The notes under the pieces are model-generated. The model saw nothing but the letters and a program-made list of their open reading frames with translations. It had not been told where the DNA came from and made no database searches. From assembly GCA_019058365.1 (NCBI GenBank), contig JAHPZE010000001.1, forward strand, positions 409,738 through 473,737: a stretch of DNA of 64,000 bases, given 5' to 3'. Below are positions 17,420 to 27,670 of the stretch, in pieces. Source of the stretch: Promethearchaeota archaeon (GTDB lineage Archaea; Asgardarchaeota; Lokiarchaeia; Sigyniarchaeales; SOKP01). Positions within the stretch are counted from its first letter, which is position 1, and each line of letters begins with the position of its first letter. Position numbers and translations under genes: made by a program.

Positions 17420-17851
17420 TTAAATAACTTGCAGTGGTCCTAGTTTTTTAATTTCATTAGTAAATTCAGTGATGACTTCAGCAAATCGCTTCCCTTCAGA
17501 TGCACTTACCCATTCAAGTCTAAATCTTTTTTCAAGATTGAATATTTTTAATATTTCCTTAAAATGTTCAAATCTATCCCTAGCAAACTCATTTCCTTTT
17601 AAGTAATGACAGTCACCGATATGACATCCTGTCACAATGACTCCATCAATACCATCTTTAAAAGCCTCCAAAATAAAAGCGGGATCTACTCTACCAGAGC
17701 ACATCACTCTTACTATCCGAATAGTAGCAGGGTACTGAAAACGAGATACGCCAGCTAAATCTGCCCCAGCATAACTACACCAATTACAACAAAAACATAA
17801 TATATTTGGATGGAAATCTTTTTTATTTACTTTCTTTTTTGACTTAGACAT
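17420..17851 (-). CDS. mvhD: MvhD [2Fe-2S] subunit (Cys form)
   Basis: FCCNWCSYAGADLAG, MCSGRVD, GCHIGDCHY, WVSASEG. Confidence 0.96.
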   Translation of the reverse strand: MSKSKKKVNKKDFHPNILCFCCNWCSYAGADLAGVSRFQYPATIRIVRVMCSGRVDPAFILEAFKDGIDGVIVTGCHIGDCHYLKGNEFARDRFEHFKEILKIFNLEKRFRLEWVSASEGKRFAEVITEFTNEIKKLGPLQVI

Positions 17852-17869
17852 AAGTTAATACCTCATAAT

Positions 17870-20800
17870 TTAAGTTTGGACAAGAAGTGCAGAAATCATA
17901 GCGTGAATTTGCTCAAAACCAAAATGTTTAATAACTATTGTTGAATTAGGACATTGTGCGCCACATGTACCACATCCCTTACAAAGCGCAGGATTTATAT
18001 GAGATTTTTTATTAGTCATTGTAAAATCTTCGAACGTTCTTTCTTTTTCTATTAATTCTATAGCATTAAATTGACAGACTTCTACACAGCTTCCACAGCC
18101 AATGCAATTTTCTTCTATTACAACCGCTACAAGTCCAGATGTTACAAGCTTTTCAGCACTTAAAATTTTAACTGCTTGAGCAGCAGCTCCATTGGATTGT
18201 GCAATTGATTCTCGAAGATCTTTAGGTGAATGTGCACTTCCACATAAATATATACCATCTGTAGCAAAATCAATTGGTCTCAATTTAACATGTGCTTCCA
18301 AAAAGAATTTGTCCTCATTAAGTGGCACTTTTAACATTTTTGCTAGCTCTTCATTTTCTTTTATAGGTGCTACGAGACCAGTACTTAGTACGACTAAATC
18401 AGGATTTATTTCAAGGGCTCCTAAATCTGGATTATTGATTTTAATTTTTAATCTTTTATTTTTAATAGTTAATTCTGGAGGTTTAGATTCATCAAATCTA
18501 AGAAATATAACCTTTTTATCTCGTGCTAAGTTATAATATTTTTCTTTAAAACCATATGTTCGGATATCACGATATAGAATTACTATTTCTAAATTAGGAT
18601 TGATTTCTTTTGCTTTTAGCGCATTTTTAATAGCTTCTGAACAACAGATTCTACTACAATAAGGGTGATCTTCATTTCTAGATCCAACGCATTGAATCAT
18701 AGCTATTGATTTCAATCCTTTTATTTTATCCGTAGTAAAAAGATCTTTTTCAAATTCGGTTTGGGATATAATTCTTTGATCTTTCCCGAAACCATATTCT
18801 TTTGGTTGATATTCTTTTGCCCCTGTGGCTACAATAATTATTCCATGGTCTAGATCAACACTTTTACTATTATTTCCATAACTTATGTTTGTGGAAAAAT
18901 TCCCTATATATCCTGAAATTGAATTAATTTGAGCATTTTTAAATACGTGAATGAATTGATTATTTTCAACTTTTTTAATTAGGTTTCCAAGATACTCCTG
19001 AATATCATCATTTTCAAGGGTTTGATAAATATTTTTGGCAAATCCACCTAGAGAATCTTCCTTTTCAATTAAAAAAACTTCATAACCTTGAGAAGCCAGA
19101 TTTAATGCTGCTGACATTCCAGATACACCCCCTCCTATGATGAGACCCTTACTTATTACAGTAATTTCTTGTTCCTGCAACGGGATTAATTGGCTAGCCT
19201 TTGCTATTGACATACGCAATAAATCTTTTGATTTTGCTGTAGCTTTTTCAGGTTCATGCATATGAACCCATGAACATTGATCTCGAATATTTACCATTTC
19301 AAAAAGATATTTATTCAAACCAGCTTCCCTAATTGTTGCTTGAAATAATGGTTCATGTGTTCTTGGAGTACATGAGGCAACAATAACTCTATTAAGTTGA
19401 TTTTTTTCAATTTTTTCTTTAATATTTGTTTGGGTATCTGCTGAACAAGTATACAAATTATGTTCAGCATAAACAACATTGGGCAATGTTTTAACGTATT
19501 CAACTACATTAGGAACATCAACAACTCCACCAATATTTATCCCGCAATGGCATATAAATACCCCTATTCGCGGGTGTTGACCACTTACATCTAATTCTTC
19601 GGGAAGTTCTTTCTTAGAGACTAATTTATTTCTTGCTTCTGATAGAAGAACATTTACATATCCAGCAGCAGCACTAGCTTCAATAACGGTTTCTGGAATA
19701 TCTTTTGGTGTTGCGAAAGACCCACAAACATAAATTCCAGGTCTTGAAGTCTCTACTGGGTTAAAGGTTCCAGTTTTACAAAACCCATATTCATTTAACT
19801 GGATATTTAATTTCTGTGCTAATTCTTTTGCTTTTTGATTAGGTTGCATTCCAACGGAAAGGACGACTAGATTAAAAATTTCTTTAACAATTTTTCCATT
19901 TCCTGTTTCATAATAAACCTTTAAATCTTTAGAGTCCGGAATTTCTTTAATAGAAGAAATTCTGCGTCTGATATATCTTATTCCATACTCATTCTTCGCT
20001 CGTTCAATATATTTATCAAAATCTTTACCATATGCTCTGATATCCATTGTAAAAATTGTTGGTTCTATAATATTCATGTGCTCTTTTGCTATTACTGCTT
20101 CTTTTGTTGTATACATGCAACACACAGAAGAGCAGTAATCAATTCTATGCTTTCTATCTCTTGAACCTATACAATGTAAAAAAGCAATTTTTTTGGGGAT
20201 AATCCCATCAGAAGGGCGAATTATTAAACCAGAATGTGGTCCACTAGCACTGAGTATACGTTCAAATTCAATACTAGTAATCACATTTAAATGCTTACCG
20301 TAACCCAATTCCGTTAAAGGAGTAGGATCATATTCATCAAATCCAATTGCTAATACTACAGCTCCTACATTAAGGTTAATTAAACTATCTTGAAGTTCAT
20401 AATTTATAGCTTTTGCTTTACATATTCCTTTACAAATACCACAACCTATACATTTTTGTTTATTAATTGAGAAAACTAATGGAACTGCTTGAGGAAATTT
20501 CACAGAAATTGCTGCTTTGTTAGAAAGCTTTTCATTAAAAAAATCAATAGCCTCTATAGGACATTGTTGAGCACACAAACCGCACCCTGTACATTTATTC
20601 TGATCCAAACGAAGGGTTGTTTGAGTTAAATGAACATTAAAATTTCCTGGAACACCTTCAATTTTTTCAATTGAGGAATTAATTAAAATATCTATATTTT
20701 CATGTCGACCAGTTTGTACTAATTTTGGGGCAAGAATACATATTGCACAGTCATTAGTTGGAAATGTTTTATCCAATTGAGACATAGTTCCTCCAATACT

Positions 20801-20911
20801 GGTTGTAGATTCTGCTAGATATACTTTATAGCCTGAATCTGCTAAATCTATAGAAGTTTGAATACCAGCAATTCCACCACCAATAACTAGAACAGCTCCG
20901 ACTTTCTCCAT
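17870..20911 (-). CDS. hdrA: HdrA-like protein, long form (1013 aa)
   Basis: Same architecture as 3462-6542. Confidence 0.93.
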   Translation of the reverse strand: MEKVGAVLVIGGGIAGIQTSIDLADSGYKVYLAESTTSIGGTMSQLDKTFPTNDCAICILAPKLVQTGRHENIDILINSSIEKIEGVPGNFNVHLTQTTLRLDQNKCTGCGLCAQQCPIEAIDFFNEKLSNKAAISVKFPQAVPLVFSINKQKCIGCGICKGICKAKAINYELQDSLINLNVGAVVLAIGFDEYDPTPLTELGYGKHLNVITSIEFERILSASGPHSGLIIRPSDGIIPKKIAFLHCIGSRDRKHRIDYCSSVCCMYTTKEAVIAKEHMNIIEPTIFTMDIRAYGKDFDKYIERAKNEYGIRYIRRRISSIKEIPDSKDLKVYYETGNGKIVKEIFNLVVLSVGMQPNQKAKELAQKLNIQLNEYGFCKTGTFNPVETSRPGIYVCGSFATPKDIPETVIEASAAAGYVNVLLSEARNKLVSKKELPEELDVSGQHPRIGVFICHCGINIGGVVDVPNVVEYVKTLPNVVYAEHNLYTCSADTQTNIKEKIEKNQLNRVIVASCTPRTHEPLFQATIREAGLNKYLFEMVNIRDQCSWVHMHEPEKATAKSKDLLRMSIAKASQLIPLQEQEITVISKGLIIGGGVSGMSAALNLASQGYEVFLIEKEDSLGGFAKNIYQTLENDDIQEYLGNLIKKVENNQFIHVFKNAQINSISGYIGNFSTNISYGNNSKSVDLDHGIIIVATGAKEYQPKEYGFGKDQRIISQTEFEKDLFTTDKIKGLKSIAMIQCVGSRNEDHPYCSRICCSEAIKNALKAKEINPNLEIVILYRDIRTYGFKEKYYNLARDKKVIFLRFDESKPPELTIKNKRLKIKINNPDLGALEINPDLVVLSTGLVAPIKENEELAKMLKVPLNEDKFFLEAHVKLRPIDFATDGIYLCGSAHSPKDLRESIAQSNGAAAQAVKILSAEKLVTSGLVAVVIEENCIGCGSCVEVCQFNAIELIEKERTFEDFTMTNKKSHINPALCKGCGTCGAQCPNSTIVIKHFGFEQIHAMISALLVQT

Positions 20912-22188
20912 TACTTCTCCTCAATATTATAATTAGGTTCTATTAATGTGATCATATTCACTAAAAATTCTGAAAAATCTATAATTTCTATAGAAGAGAA
21001 ATCATCATAGTCTTTTTTTAGACAGTTCAAATGCATTCGACATTTTGGACAAGCTGTAATCATTTTAGTTCCAACAGCTTTAGCTTCTAACAAACGCTTA
21101 TATCGTAAAGCTTTTGATCGTTCATTACAATTCATCCAAGAATTTACTCCACAACAATAAGAATTTTCTTTATTATGCGCCATTTCTTTAAAATCATAAC
21201 CAATAGCCTTCAAATATTTGAAGATTTCTCGGACATTCTCAACTATTTTATTATCCTTAGGTAAAAATCTACTTAATCTACAAGGATCATGAAAAGTAAA
21301 TTGAATTAGTTCATTAGATTCATTGGGGTTTTTAAATTGAACTTTTCCTTGCTTCCATTTATCATAGATATATTCAATTATATGTTTAACTTCAAATTTT
21401 TCATTAAAATCTTCAAATAATTTTGGATAATCAATTTTAAATGTTCTATAACATTCAGCACATGCTGTTACTATATGTGTAATTCCTGCTTTATCAAACA
21501 GTTTAATATTTTTTTTCGCTAATTCAATAAAGCTTTCGAATTTTGCTTGGCCCCAATATAAATCATGACCACAGCATACCTCATCTTTCAGAATAACTAC
21601 TGGATCATTTTCTAATTGACAAATAATCTTAAGTGTGCTTTCTGCTATAGATATTGAATCTTTGAATTCATAGTTAAAGAAAGGTAAACATCCTACATAA
21701 TATAAAATATTTCCTCTATCTGAAATTTTACACCCTTTTGGAATCCAATCTAAAGGTCTCTCAATTTTAAAATTATCTTGACTCATCATTTCTGACATCA
21801 AAGGATAAATACCTTTATGAGCAATAGAACGATCAGGATTTTGAATATCTTTTAACCGCATTTTATATCTAGCAATTCTGACAATGTCAGCGAAATTTAT
21901 ATCTTTAGGACAATGTTGTAGGCAACTATTACACATTAAACAATCCCATAACACCCTACTATTGATTATCTCATCTTCAAAACCTTCTAATATTGTTTGA
22001 ATAATTCTACTAGGTGTAAATTTTTGTACTTTACTTACTTGGCATACACCCGAGCAACGGGCACATTGATAACATTTTTTTAGTAAGTTAGATAAATCTG
22101 GCTCGAATATTTTTTTCAAATATTCATAATTGTCATCAGAATCTGGTTCTAATTTATCGGACTTTTTACTTTCAGTTATGGTAGTCAC
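20911..22188 (-). CDS. HdrD-like Fe-S/CCG oxidoreductase
   Basis: Close paralog of 2030-3310; TAATG overlap with hdrA. Confidence 0.88.
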   Translation of the reverse strand: MTTITESKKSDKLEPDSDDNYEYLKKIFEPDLSNLLKKCYQCARCSGVCQVSKVQKFTPSRIIQTILEGFEDEIINSRVLWDCLMCNSCLQHCPKDINFADIVRIARYKMRLKDIQNPDRSIAHKGIYPLMSEMMSQDNFKIERPLDWIPKGCKISDRGNILYYVGCLPFFNYEFKDSISIAESTLKIICQLENDPVVILKDEVCCGHDLYWGQAKFESFIELAKKNIKLFDKAGITHIVTACAECYRTFKIDYPKLFEDFNEKFEVKHIIEYIYDKWKQGKVQFKNPNESNELIQFTFHDPCRLSRFLPKDNKIVENVREIFKYLKAIGYDFKEMAHNKENSYCCGVNSWMNCNERSKALRYKRLLEAKAVGTKMITACPKCRMHLNCLKKDYDDFSSIEIIDFSEFLVNMITLIEPNYNIEEK

Positions 22189-23692
22189 TCCTCTCTTTTT
22201 CTTCTTTTAGTTCAATTGGTTTACAATTTTTTCTCTTAGTACCAGCAATTCTTTCTAATAAGGATTGCCCCGGTTTAACATCCTCTAAGCTTTTTGATTC
22301 TATTAATCCTGCATTAATTGCCTCTTTATAAAGGGTTTCACCCTTTTTATTTCGTGTAATCACTGTAGACCACCCACTAGGGGACCCTATTGATCCTACA
22401 GAAATATCAGCATAATCGGAGGTCAAGTCTTCGCAATAGTGACAATTATGGCGAGCATAGGATTTGACTTCATTTAAGGGTACGTTTAAATCTTCACCCG
22501 AATCTAAATAAATGATAAATTTCCCACCACTTATATCCATTTTCGTAACTTTATTAAAATCTGATTGGAACTTTTCATTGATTAAGTTAAGAACACCCTC
22601 ATAAGGAAAAGATTCCATACAAAAAAGCCCTATTCGATATTTAATGTTTGTAAAAAATGGTAGTCCACTCGGAAATAAAGTACCTTTTTCTAAAGCATTC
22701 ATCATACAGGGAACGCCTACAACTGCAATGTTTTCATACTTTTTTGTTTCATCTATAATACTTAAAGTCGAGGCATTAGCGTATTTAGTGCCACTTGTTT
22801 TGTAAAGATCTTTAATGTCTTCTATTATCACTGGCTCTGGTTTCCATAACTCCTTCGAATGTTGTACTGCTACAATCACATCAACTAATTTATTTTTAAG
22901 TAAGTATTCAAGCAAAGAGGTAACAATCCCACCATCTTGTCGTACTTTTTTAATATCATTCTTAGTGGTGCTCGCAGAATAGGTATTTATATAACCATTA
23001 ATTTGTTCTGAGAACTTTAAGGATTTATCAAGCTTATTTATATTTTTGCCCGCTTGTTCGATTGAAAATGATCTCGGGCAAACTGAATAACATAAACCGC
23101 ATTTTATGCAAATTTTATCATCTATCTCCAAAGTATCTGCTGTGGCTGTGATGGCATTCACGGGACAAATTGATGAACACCAACCACATTGACAGCATAC
23201 TTCAGAATCAAACACAATAGAAACTGGTTCAAAAAAATGTTCAATAAAATCATCGGGGAGATCTTTAACTTGATAGCGATAAAAATATTCTTTTTCTTCG
23301 ACTTCTTTTTCTTCTCCCTTTATTTTCTTGATAACAGTCTTAGTTTTTATATCGATAAGTTCTTCAATATATCCCTGTTCTTTAAGATAAATTACATCAC
23401 GAATTACATTTTCTACAGGAAAATCTTTTACAATTTTTGCAATTTCCTCTAAAAATAATGGTTCTTTACCTTTTAATAATTCTAACACTAATTTACGCTC
23501 TGTTTCTGCATCAATCAGGGCATCTAGTATTTCATAAAATTCTTTTTCAGAATACTTTCCAGTTTTTAAAATTTCATCTTTTGCTTCGAAAAAAGCGCGA
23601 ATTTGAAAATTTTCTACGGCCTTATAGGTAGCATCCATTAAATTTTTTGGAGATATTCCATTGAAATTTACGTTATTTGAAATTTGAACCAT
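22172..23692 (-). CDS. FrhB/FdhB-family F420-binding subunit with ferredoxin domain and N-terminal extension
   Basis: Two CxxCxxCxxxCP, QDGGIVT, SGTKY, VGVPC, IGLFCME, CHYCED...ADISVGSIGSPSGWS. Confidence 0.88.
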   Translation of the reverse strand: MVQISNNVNFNGISPKNLMDATYKAVENFQIRAFFEAKDEILKTGKYSEKEFYEILDALIDAETERKLVLELLKGKEPLFLEEIAKIVKDFPVENVIRDVIYLKEQGYIEELIDIKTKTVIKKIKGEEKEVEEKEYFYRYQVKDLPDDFIEHFFEPVSIVFDSEVCCQCGWCSSICPVNAITATADTLEIDDKICIKCGLCYSVCPRSFSIEQAGKNINKLDKSLKFSEQINGYINTYSASTTKNDIKKVRQDGGIVTSLLEYLLKNKLVDVIVAVQHSKELWKPEPVIIEDIKDLYKTSGTKYANASTLSIIDETKKYENIAVVGVPCMMNALEKGTLFPSGLPFFTNIKYRIGLFCMESFPYEGVLNLINEKFQSDFNKVTKMDISGGKFIIYLDSGEDLNVPLNEVKSYARHNCHYCEDLTSDYADISVGSIGSPSGWSTVITRNKKGETLYKEAINAGLIESKSLEDVKPGQSLLERIAGTKRKNCKPIELKEEKERSDYHN

Positions 23693-23756: not shown

Positions 23757-23829
23757 AACCCCTTCCCTTGCAAGGTGAGTTCTCTTATAACTAATATTTT
23801 TTTATAAGAGTCATTCTACAGGGGTAGTT
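23757..23829 (-). promoter_or_regulatory. Candidate eukaryote-like SECIS element
   Basis: Minus strand: CCCUGUAG-A-AUGA-CUCUUAUAA-AAAAAUAUUAG-UUAUAAGAG-AACUCACC-UUGCAAGGG. Perfect 9-bp upper helix, A-rich apical loop, lower helix; directly after two TGA-containing genes; folded by eye only. Confidence 0.7.
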
Positions 23830-24272
23830 ATAACTTGTTTTGTTTCAATTTTTGACTCTTCTTCTACTAAGTTAAGTGGATTTGGTCCAGCTTTGCTTAC
23901 TTTTTTATAAGCGTCCTCGACAGATTCGACAAATTTCCCAGCATCTCCTCCACTTACCCAATACATGTTTATTCTCTGATTTCCGAAACCTCTTGATTCT
24001 AAGATTCTGTTTGCTAATTCTACATGTCTTTCGGCTGTGAAATTACCATTTTTAAATTGACATTCATTGGGTCGTCAGCCTACAATCATGACACCATCAG
24101 CTCCCGAGCGAATACTGTAGAGAATATGCTTAACATCAACTCTACCAGTACATTTTACTTTGATTATTTTTACTGCAGGTGTATACTTCAATCGAGAAAC
24201 TCCCGCTAAATCAGCAGCACTATAACCTCATTTTAAACATGCAAAAATAATCATTTTATACCTATTTTTCAT
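23811..24272 (-). CDS. mvhD: Selenocysteine-containing MvhD/VhuD, 153 aa, Sec15 and Sec66
   Basis: Missed by ORF track. MKNRYKMIIFACLK[TGA 24228-24230]GYSAADLAGVSR...KCTGRVD...IVG[TGA 24075-24077]RPNECQFKNGN; both TGAs align to Cys in 17420-17851. Confidence 0.95.
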
Positions 24273-24278
24273 ACCTGT

Positions 24279-26222
24279 TTAAACACCTCCGAGAAGACCG
24301 TCAATTTCAGCAAATAATTGATGATCTCGATAATATCTGATATCAATTGCTTGAGTAGGACAACATGTAGCACAAATACCGCATCCGTCACAATTTGTCT
24401 CATCAATAAATGCACCGATATCCTTCTCAATTCTAATGGCGTTTTTGGGACACTCTTTTTCGCATCGTCCACATGAAATACAGAATTCGCTGTTCACTTC
24501 AGCAGTAATTAGTTCTATATCGATTTGTCCTGGTGCTGTTAACTCAGCTGCTTTGCTAGCCGCTGCCCTCGCTTGAGAAACGGAATAAGAAATATTTTTT
24601 GGTCCTTGAGCAAATCCAGCTATAAAAATTCCTTTTGATTTCGTTTCTTGCGGCATGAGTCCGAAATGGGATTCTGTGAGGAACCCGTATGTATTAGTAT
24701 CAAGGTTTAGTACTTGTACAATCTGATTAGTACCTTTTGAAGGGAGTGCTGCTGAGGATAATACGACTAAATCTGCATCAATTATTACGATCTTATCTGT
24801 TAGTGTTGAATAGACGCGAACCTTCACATTTTTAGTTTCAGGATCTTCAGAGATTTCCCCTACTTTTCCGCGAATCATTTTAATTCCTACATCTTTAGCT
24901 CGTTCATAGTACTCTTCAAATCCTTTTTCGGGAGTTCTTATATCAATATAACAGATTGTAATATTCGCATCGGGAAATTCTTCGAGCAATAACCTTCCGT
25001 TTTTTAGAGCGAGCATGCAACACACACCACTACAATAAGTTCGTTCATTTTCTCGACTTCCTACGCATTGTATAAATACAATTTCTTTTAACTTCTTATT
25101 ATCAGAAATTCGATGAACATGACCTTCAAGTGGACCATTTGGAGCAAGTATTCGTTCTAACTGAACTTGAGTTATGACATTCTCAAATTCTCCGTATCCA
25201 TATTCACCAAAAGGTTCGTAGATATCCCATCCAGTTGCTATAATGATTGTACCAACTTCAATATCAACTTCTGTAGGCACTTGACTGAAATCAATGGCAT
25301 CTAATTCACAGGCATCTACACAGGAAAAACACTCAATACACGCATCCCTGTCGATATCATATAGAAACGGTACTGCTTGACCAAATGGAATATCAATTGC
25401 TTTTCGCGCTCCCAAATGTTCATCAAAATAATTGCTCACATATAAAGGACAAACCTCACTGCATGCACCACATCCATTACAGTCGTCCGTCGTATATCGC
25501 GGTTTCCTTTCAATAGTTACTTTATAGTTCCCGACATATCCTTCTACTTTTTTTACTTCACTATAGGTGACTAATTCAATATTCTCATTTCTATTAACTT
25601 CTAACATTTTGGGACCACAAATTCATATAGCACAATCGTCTGTAGGAAAGGTTCTGTCTAACTGAGACATTCTCCCTCCTATTGTAGTTTTTTGATCAAC
25701 TAAATATACCTTGATGCCTTGATTCGCAAGATCGAGAGCCGCATTCATACCACAAATCCCAGCTCCAATAACTAATGAGGCTTTTGTAACTGGAACTGTC
25801 TTAATTGGCACTGGCTCTAATCGTTTTACTCTTTCAATTCCACTTTTCACTAAGATTTTTGCCTTCTCTGTAGCTTCTTCTTTACTATCTGTGCACCATG
25901 AACACTGTTCACGAACATTTACCATTTGAAAGTAGTATGGATTTAGGGCAGTTTTAGCTATTGTCCCCCGATAAATAACCTCATGTGTACGTGGGGTTCA
26001 AGCAGATGCTACAATTCGGTCTAGATTTTTTTCTTTAATATCTTTAATAATTTCATTTTGAGCATTATCGGTGCATAGAAAAGCATTTTTTTTAGCAATT
26101 ACGACATCATCAAAAGTCTTACTTACGTATTCTACAAGCTCATCGCAATCTACTTTAGTCCTAATATTTACTCCTCATTGACAAGCATAGTATCCAATCC
26201 GATGATTTTCATTATTATTCAT
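24279..26222 (-). CDS. hdrA: Selenocysteine-containing HdrA, 647 aa, Sec16, Sec75, Sec200
   Basis: ATG 26222; RIGYYACQ[TGA 26175-26177]GVNI, ASA[TGA 25998-26000]TPRTHE, FPTDDCAI[TGA 25623-25625]ICGPKML; one frame joining listed ORFs 25623-25925 and 24279-25607. Confidence 0.95.
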
Positions 26223-26692
26223 CTCTTTTTACACATCCACCTCTAGCTTTTACATAATTGTATATTCATAAATTTCTTAGATTTTTATTGGATGTTTTTT
26301 AAGTTCCAATATTGATCTTTTTGTAACGATCGATATTAAATATTTTTTTTAATTGTATTTACATTTTCAATATTTTTAATAGTTTTTGTTACCATATATA
26401 AGCAAATATTTGTAAAGCGGTCACAACATCAAAATATTTTTGACCAGATTGAAGATTTTTAACTATTTTTTTTTGAAGATAATCATAGAAAGAGGAATTT
26501 ATGATCGATCTTAAACATTTTTATTTAAGAACTTCTTAATCAAATTGGATTCTATTTTGCATTGATTCTAATCTTTATAAGATTTGACATTTTTATCAAA
26601 AAGACCAAGAATACTAAAATTGATGTTAATTCAATAAAGCTGATAAAAAGAGAAAAAGTTAATTCTCCTCATAAAAATTATAGGACTCAATT

Positions 26693-27670
26693 CTAATGAA
26701 GATCATTATTTAAGTACTCTTTATAATAGTGAGATTTATTTAAAAGGTATTTTTGAACAATTGGTTTAAATATCATAGTAAAAAATCGTGAAATGACTAC
26801 TTTTTTTTTTACCGCATTGAAATAATCATCGAGAGTATATCTTTGATAATTAAGAAATGCTTGACTTTTATCTGTTGTCATGAATCCGCAATGAAATCCC
26901 CTCCCTCGCCTGAAAGCTTCCTCAGGCAATCCTTCAAAACCTATACCAAAAATGTCTAGCATTTCCTTAAGATAATCACGATATGAAATCCGACATCTAT
27001 CTCCGCCTGCAATATGCATAACTTCTCCCCAAATTTTTTCATTTTCCACAGCATTGGTAAGAGCAAGACCCACATCTTTGGTATCGCAGATTTCTATACA
27101 AGTTTCAAGAGGCATTTCAAACATTAAAGGATCCATTTGCAATTTATTCAAAGAGACAATATAAGTCAACCGAAAAATCGCCCAATCCAAAGAAGAGTTC
27201 TTAATTAATTCCTCACACTTTAATTTTTGTTTGGCATATTCATCATCAACGTTTGGATTTAGTGTATCATCTGGTGTTATTAAAGGATTTTCAAGTCGAT
27301 CTCCGTATACTGCTACTGAAGATGTAAAAATGAGTTTTGGTTTTTTAGGCTGATTTTCCATAGCTTTAACAATATTAGCAGTTCCTCCAACATTTACAGA
27401 TTCTGCAAATTTAGGTTTTTTATCGGCAAGAGGTGGAATAATTGCTGCTACATGAATAATAACATCTCTATCAGCAACAGCCTTTTCGACATTATTATAA
27501 TTCCTTAAATCTCCCCAAAAGATTTCTACATCTTTCTTGTATTTAATTGCCAACCTTTTGTTCCTTCTAGTTTTAATATCAAAAATTCTAATATCATAAT
27601 TTCTTTTAAGCATTTCTTTTAATGTGCTCAATCCTACATTACCAAATGCTCCTGTTAATAAAACTTTCAT
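26693..27670 (-). CDS. NAD-dependent epimerase/dehydratase (extended SDR)
   Basis: TGAFGNVG, HVAA, TSS, YAKQK. Confidence 0.9.
   Translation of the reverse strand: MKVLLTGAFGNVGLSTLKEMLKRNYDIRIFDIKTRRNKRLAIKYKKDVEIFWGDLRNYNNVEKAVADRDVIIHVAAIIPPLADKKPKFAESVNVGGTANIVKAMENQPKKPKLIFTSSVAVYGDRLENPLITPDDTLNPNVDDEYAKQKLKCEELIKNSSLDWAIFRLTYIVSLNKLQMDPLMFEMPLETCIEICDTKDVGLALTNAVENEKIWGEVMHIAGGDRCRISYRDYLKEMLDIFGIGFEGLPEEAFRRGRGFHCGFMTTDKSQAFLNYQRYTLDDYFNAVKKKVVISRFFTMIFKPIVQKYLLNKSHYYKEYLNNDLH

Follow-up and report, generated by a model that had tools for sequence, protein, structure and literature searches.

A putative type I lokiSECIS element shared by hdrA and mvhD overlaps the mvhD stop codon and may form a three-way junction

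Introduction

The closest described relatives of the element analyzed here are the lokiSECIS elements of Mariotti et al. (2016; PMC4989117). According to that paper, one SECIS serves up to six UGA codons of hdrA-vhuD over ~2 kb, an AUGA core that doubles as a stop codon was shown for VhuU.1, and an hdrA gene located upstream of a selenocysteine (Sec)-encoding mvhD was predicted never to end in UGA. Huang, Xiao, and Zhang (2024; PMC11227280) described the AUGA_AA variant for hdrA/frhD of Lokiarchaeia, with an element common to both genes, and reported that UGA stop codons frequently overlap the AUGA motif. SBP2 is reported in the literature to be absent from Asgard genomes, and the literature surveyed contains no experimental test of an Asgard SECIS. 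In a k-junction, an extra helix is present on the non-bulged strand (Li et al., 2023, PMC10573300; Wang et al., 2014, PMC4005666). Two such k-junctions did not fold upon addition of L7Ae (PMC10573300).

The whole stretch of DNA that we analyzed, comprising 64,000 nucleotides of a Promethearchaeota archaeon, is referred to as the window. The original prediction was that a single SECIS-like hairpin is shared by hdrA and mvhD, recodes five UGA codons, and uses its own UGA as the mvhD stop codon. Sequence comparison supports this arrangement. Sharing, the AUGA/stop overlap, and the AUGA_AA variant have all been published previously (PMC4989117 and PMC11227280), and the only feature not described in the main text of these papers is a conserved third helix.

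Results

The hdrA-mvhD gene pair and its UGA codons

The two genes and the putative element are encoded on the minus strand of the window:

24279..26222, minus strand: hdrA, 647 aa, UAA stop codon, three in-frame UGA codons
26177, 26000, and 25625, minus strand: in-frame UGA codons of hdrA (U16, U75, and U200, respectively)
24273..24278, minus strand: hdrA-mvhD intergenic gap, 6 nt, too small for an hdrA SECIS
23811..24272, minus strand: mvhD/vhuD, 153 aa, Pfam FlpD (E 1e-41), with the UGA of the putative SECIS core as the stop codon
24230 and 24077, minus strand: in-frame UGA codons of mvhD (U15 and U66, respectively)
23758-23825, minus strand: putative SECIS element, whole

All five in-frame UGA codons, three in hdrA and two in mvhD, occupy Cys-aligned positions. 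As originally stated, the genes are 6 nt apart, and the first hdrA UGA is located 2363 nt upstream of the SECIS core (predicted, ~2.36 kb). Among orthologues of the same family, the intergenic gap comprises 4-22 nt, hdrA carries three to five UGA codons at Cys positions (mostly 16, 50, 75, and 200), so that each orthologous gene pair would have five to seven UGA codons served by one element. Codon 50 of hdrA (window region 26073-26075) encodes Cys here and is UGA in 35 of 38 orthologues; a fifth UGA at position 102, 301, or 614 in some orthologous hdrA genes results in seven per pair.

A gene encoding an FrhB domain (22172-23692, minus strand) follows on the same strand ~65 nt past the element. 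It ends with UGA, has a UAA two codons on, and overlaps the GTG start codon of the next gene. Because this UGA is located 3' of the SECIS element, it is probably a plain stop codon. Downstream of the Sec pair, the same gene run includes two Cys-only genes, an mvhD and a long hdrA (window 17420-20911, minus strand). The genome contains five Sec-hdrA and four Sec-mvhD genes (contigs C9, C16, and C21); the only Sec-hdrA that is not followed by mvhD (C16:344816) has its own SECIS.

Detection and identity of the SECIS element

The 3' end of mvhD reads GUA GAA UGA CUC UUA UAA on the minus strand and is, in accordance with the original prediction, the site of an AUGA that is followed by a perfect 9-bp helix and an A-rich loop. 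The element consists of the following parts:

23820..23825, minus strand: lower helix P1, 5' strand ACCCCU, within the last codons of mvhD
23811..23814, minus strand: AUGA core, formed by the A of GAA and the in-frame UGA (mvhD stop)
23782..23810, minus strand: upper stem P2 (9 bp, 23810-23802 with 23790-23782) and apical loop (11 nt, G last)
23780..23781, minus strand: 3' half of the core, AA (AUGA_AA variant)
23765..23775, minus strand: side hairpin P3, 3 bp with the 5-nt loop UGCAA, the third arm
23758..23763, minus strand: lower helix P1, 3' strand AGGGGU, followed by a U run

The AUGA directly preceding the stem is invariant in the 28 same-genus orthologues (28/28), and four of the nine P2 pairs show changes on both sides. 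The dinucleotide after the stem, previously given as GA, is in fact AA in this copy; GA occurs in 23 of the 28 same-genus orthologues and in 44 of 46 close orthologues. Because the orthologues carry GA in the AA column of this copy, the C bulge that had been considered for the core is unnecessary. The bulged register was rejected on this ground and because the first stem pair is unpaired in 12/28 sequences.

The loose AUGA-stem-GA pattern has ~200 matches genome-wide and carries no information on its own, and the folding z-score of the element is -2.07; folding by itself is weak evidence. The published lokiSECIS profile yielded eight matches in the genome versus two to three in shuffled sequences, with six of the eight located behind UGA-containing ORFs. 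A covariance model of the core was built from 22 elements, from which this one and its same-genus orthologues were left out. It retrieved the element with 46.5 bits (E 9e-9), while the runner-up in the 64-kb window reached 16.6 bits, and the best genome-wide matches sit behind UGA-containing genes. A better SECIS within hdrA-mvhD was considered as a refutation of the original prediction; the model gave no match at positions 23817-26660 and none inside hdrA or mvhD (E up to 10), and a 14-bit match at 26662-26709 is at chance level. The pattern search in 38 full-length orthologous pairs gave one stray inner match, and Rfam yielded no SECIS family for the region at E values up to 10. At C9:90734, a SECIS-like sequence coincides with the start codon of a paralogous mvhD; it lacks conservation across 20 orthologues, and we dismissed it as chance.

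The element thus shares with the type I lokiSECIS an AUGA before the stem, a 9-bp stem, an 11-nt loop with adenines first and G last, and GA/AA after the stem. It is located near the 3' end of genes with UGA at Cys-aligned positions, in a Lokiarchaeon with Sec machinery whose nearest relatives are assigned to Promethearchaeia/Promethearchaeota (= Lokiarchaeia). Judged from its sequence, it is a true type I lokiSECIS in an arrangement that has already been published.

Secondary structure of the flanking regions

The lower helix originally proposed did not withstand comparison with the orthologues. It is paired in 82% of the cells, as opposed to 95% each for P1 and P3 (28 orthologues), and its energy is also worse, with -13.1 kcal/mol versus -16.1 kcal/mol for the P1+P3 fold. 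Changes on both sides were observed in two of six P1 pairs and in one of three P3 pairs, and RNAalifold recovered the three-way junction unprompted from the 28 sequences. In the minimum-energy fold of the single sequence, by contrast, a private UCA is the pairing partner of the core UGA. Because of this pairing, the core of the present copy may, according to the folding model, be less well formed than in its relatives.

The genome contains eight type I elements. When the core was held open, seven adopted the same three-way junction and the eighth kept P3; one selD element behaved likewise. A hairpin 3' of the core was present in every element of the four groups of loci compared (84/84), as well as in selD, with group mean energies of -4 to -10 kcal/mol as compared to 0 to -1.4 kcal/mol for the segment 40 nt further on. 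In comparison with shuffled sequences, the hairpin was significant in 12/12 elements of other classes, in 27/35 of an unrelated gene family, and in 3/9 of other genera. None of the 28 close orthologues, in which P3 is short, was significant when taken alone (0/28). In a paralogous family, two of five P3 pairs show changes on both sides. At the level of sequence comparison, covariation favors a three-way junction composed of P1, the core with P2, and P3. The third arm is not mentioned in the main text of PMC4989117, of PMC11227280, of PMC9723677, or of a 2026 review (PMC13188914), and a literature search combining SECIS, three-way junction, and archaea found nothing relevant.

Sec machinery and further candidate selenoprotein loci

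SecS and two UGA-containing SelD proteins, whose genes are near each other on C30, were identified above the cut-off; genes for EFSec-like and PSTK-like proteins scored just or well below it. The RF01852 model did not find a tRNA-Sec above the cut-off in the genome, probably due to a T-loop intron, by analogy with the case described in PMC4989117. A tRNA-Sec candidate with a UCA anticodon, a 6-bp anticodon stem, and an apparent T-loop insertion is located at C34 ~23060-23175 (L045), immediately 5' of SecS; the EFSec-like gene is ~4.5 kb away.

Three further loci are of note. On C34, the paralogous ORFs at 290287-290703 and 292052-292501 (L043) have no Pfam match and contain two adjacent in-frame UGA codons each (DUU, CUU), followed by ~35 conserved residues and, ~120-130 nt on, by a lokiSECIS each. 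With relatives in 129 of the 151 genomes of the class, this pair represents a candidate selenoprotein family. An 87-aa ORF at C16 ~318230-318545 (L041:1732-2044) is a candidate small membrane selenoprotein: its N-terminus includes a hydrophobic stretch, it contains a GCGUGG motif, and a three-armed SECIS lies behind it. A similar small ORF at C35 ~296890-297220 has a hydrophobic N-terminus, a DDCFUH motif, and a GUGA-core SECIS-like element (32 bits) that overlaps its last codons.

Discussion

Very probably, hdrA and mvhD form one bicistronic message with a type I lokiSECIS at its 3' end. This element would direct Sec insertion at the five upstream UGA codons, provide with its own UGA the stop codon of mvhD, and fold as a three-way-junction RNA. 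Provided that the two genes are co-transcribed and that the predicted fold is adopted in the cell, the folded element would recruit EFSec and Sec-tRNA to ribosomes at the upstream UGA codons of both cistrons, and all five would be read as selenocysteine. A ribosome that arrives at the core UGA would already have unwound the lower helix and the core. Because the element could then not act on itself, the release factor would win and the core UGA would end mvhD.

Translation of mvhD would end at the AUGA in 25 of 28 same-genus orthologues and in 43 of 46 close orthologues, the latter being a named set that partly overlaps the 28. Close orthologues without the overlap terminate earlier, at a UAA or UAG that precedes the core by 5 or 17 nt, with the element unchanged. 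In the paralogous hdrA-mvhD family, none of the 19 detected elements overlaps the stop codon, and stop-to-core offsets in other Asgard lineages range from -7 to +35, with a few at 0. The overlap is common in the clade but optional, and probably represents a tolerated, lineage-fixed compaction in which the GAAUGA consensus gives Glu-stop. The codons of the last residues of mvhD, TPVE, are the same nucleotides that form the 5' strand of the lower helix and the GAAUGA consensus, and this end of the protein is probably dictated by the RNA.

Sharing of the element was evaluated against the view that it serves mvhD only and that hdrA is recoded by a signal in its own coding sequence or 5' leader. 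A 5' SECIS has been documented once, in Methanococcales (PMC4989117). Moreover, 15 loci of other Asgard lineages (L030, L076-L086, L089, L092, and L093; compared for gap length and RNA fold) have an hdrA-mvhD gap of 109-256 nt with a separate three-armed SECIS-like fold inside, as judged by eye and RNAfold. At L030, neither element has an AUGA core, but the three helices are retained in each. Sharing therefore appears to be lineage-dependent and not universal. At the present locus, however, the covariance model found no second element in or between the genes (E up to 10), and the match beyond 26660 did not exceed chance. Furthermore, hdrA upstream of Sec-mvhD ends with UAA at 36 and with UAG at 21 of 57 loci and never with UGA (the loci are kin and so not independent), whereas UGA terminates 278 of the 1879 long ORFs of the genome (15%). 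This avoidance is consistent with, but not proof of, a single message under one SECIS, and we regard a separate hdrA signal as highly improbable.

The function of the element's own parts can likewise be read in other ways. A leaky core UGA, partly decoded as Sec, with the UAA three codons later (which the original prediction took to back the stop) as a selected second stop, could account for the in-frame stop at codon +3 in 40 of the 43 overlapping close orthologues (one as UGA). That in-frame UAA (23804-23802), however, is part of P2, where it forms the paired, invariant top of the stem (positions 7-9). The triplet is also UAA in 7/7 orthologues in which it is out of frame, and three of the 43 close orthologues, as well as three loci of another Asgard class, have the overlap with the next stop only 21-31 codons on. 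Across the orthologues, the residues past the core UGA form no conserved peptide, and the next stop follows after 3 to 31 codons. We consider a leaky UGA with a selected backup quite unlikely; the UAA is probably just the stem top, which may catch rare readthrough. The flanks, i.e., P1, P3, and the U run, might instead constitute a terminator or RNA-processing signal outside the SECIS. The U run after P1 and the variability of P1 in one selenoprotein family speak for this possibility, but a hairpin follows the core in each of the 84 elements and in selD, P1-P2-P3 persist where the element sits between hdrA and mvhD, a same-strand gene begins ~65 nt past the element, and a terminator scan (bacterial-type, hence a weak test) did not call the site. 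A terminator or processing signal thus appears unlikely.

We tentatively propose, with slightly less than an even chance, that the SECIS at work in Asgard archaea has three arms and may be a k-junction, as opposed to the published two-helix eukaryote-like hairpin. If the proposal is correct, the third arm could account for UGA recoding without SBP2 in Asgard archaea, given that k-junctions were unresponsive to L7Ae in vitro (PMC10573300); loss of this arm would be a step toward the eukaryotic SECIS. The side hairpin would refine the Asgard SECIS model, sharpen the profile used to search for hidden selenoprotein genes, and offer a handle on what reads an archaeal SECIS in the absence of SBP2. 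With six UGA codons on one presumed message, of which five would be recoded and one would terminate, the locus represents a natural test of the rule that UGA recoding requires a minimal distance.

Comparison with known systems

In terms of secondary structure, the element resembles the k-junction in that the non-bulged strand of its kink-turn-like core carries an additional helix, which results in a three-way junction. The linkers are longer here (5 nt before AUGA and 4 nt after AA), and the likeness, an analogy, serves only as a lead. With the eukaryotic SECIS, which has a kink-turn core and is bound by SBP2, it shares the AUGA..GA type of core, unpaired apical adenines, the 3' position, and, presumably, action at a distance. 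In contrast to the two-helix hairpin of that SECIS with its canonical GA/GA tandem core, it has AA in place of the 3' GA, a shorter upper stem, and a three-way junction; it would be used polycistronically, overlaps coding sequence, and occurs in a group from which SBP2 is reportedly absent.

The type I eSECIS-like structure of Asgard archaea (PMC11227280) agrees with our element in the type I fold, AUGA_AA, two-gene sharing, and stop overlap. That model has an internal loop and a lower stem, and its main text describes no third helix on the 3' side. Most similar are the lokiSECIS elements of HdrA-VhuD/VhuU.1 (PMC4989117), which have the same AUGA, 9-bp stem, and 11-nt loop with 5' adenines and a last G, followed by GA or AA. 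There, too, one element behind vhuD serves many UGA codons, hdrA stops with UAA or UAG, and AUGA acts as a stop codon. The main text of that paper does not mention the lower helix and side hairpin, and the present element differs in that its overlap is with mvhD/vhuD and is fixed in the clade, and in that it would serve five UGA codons, and up to seven in its relatives.
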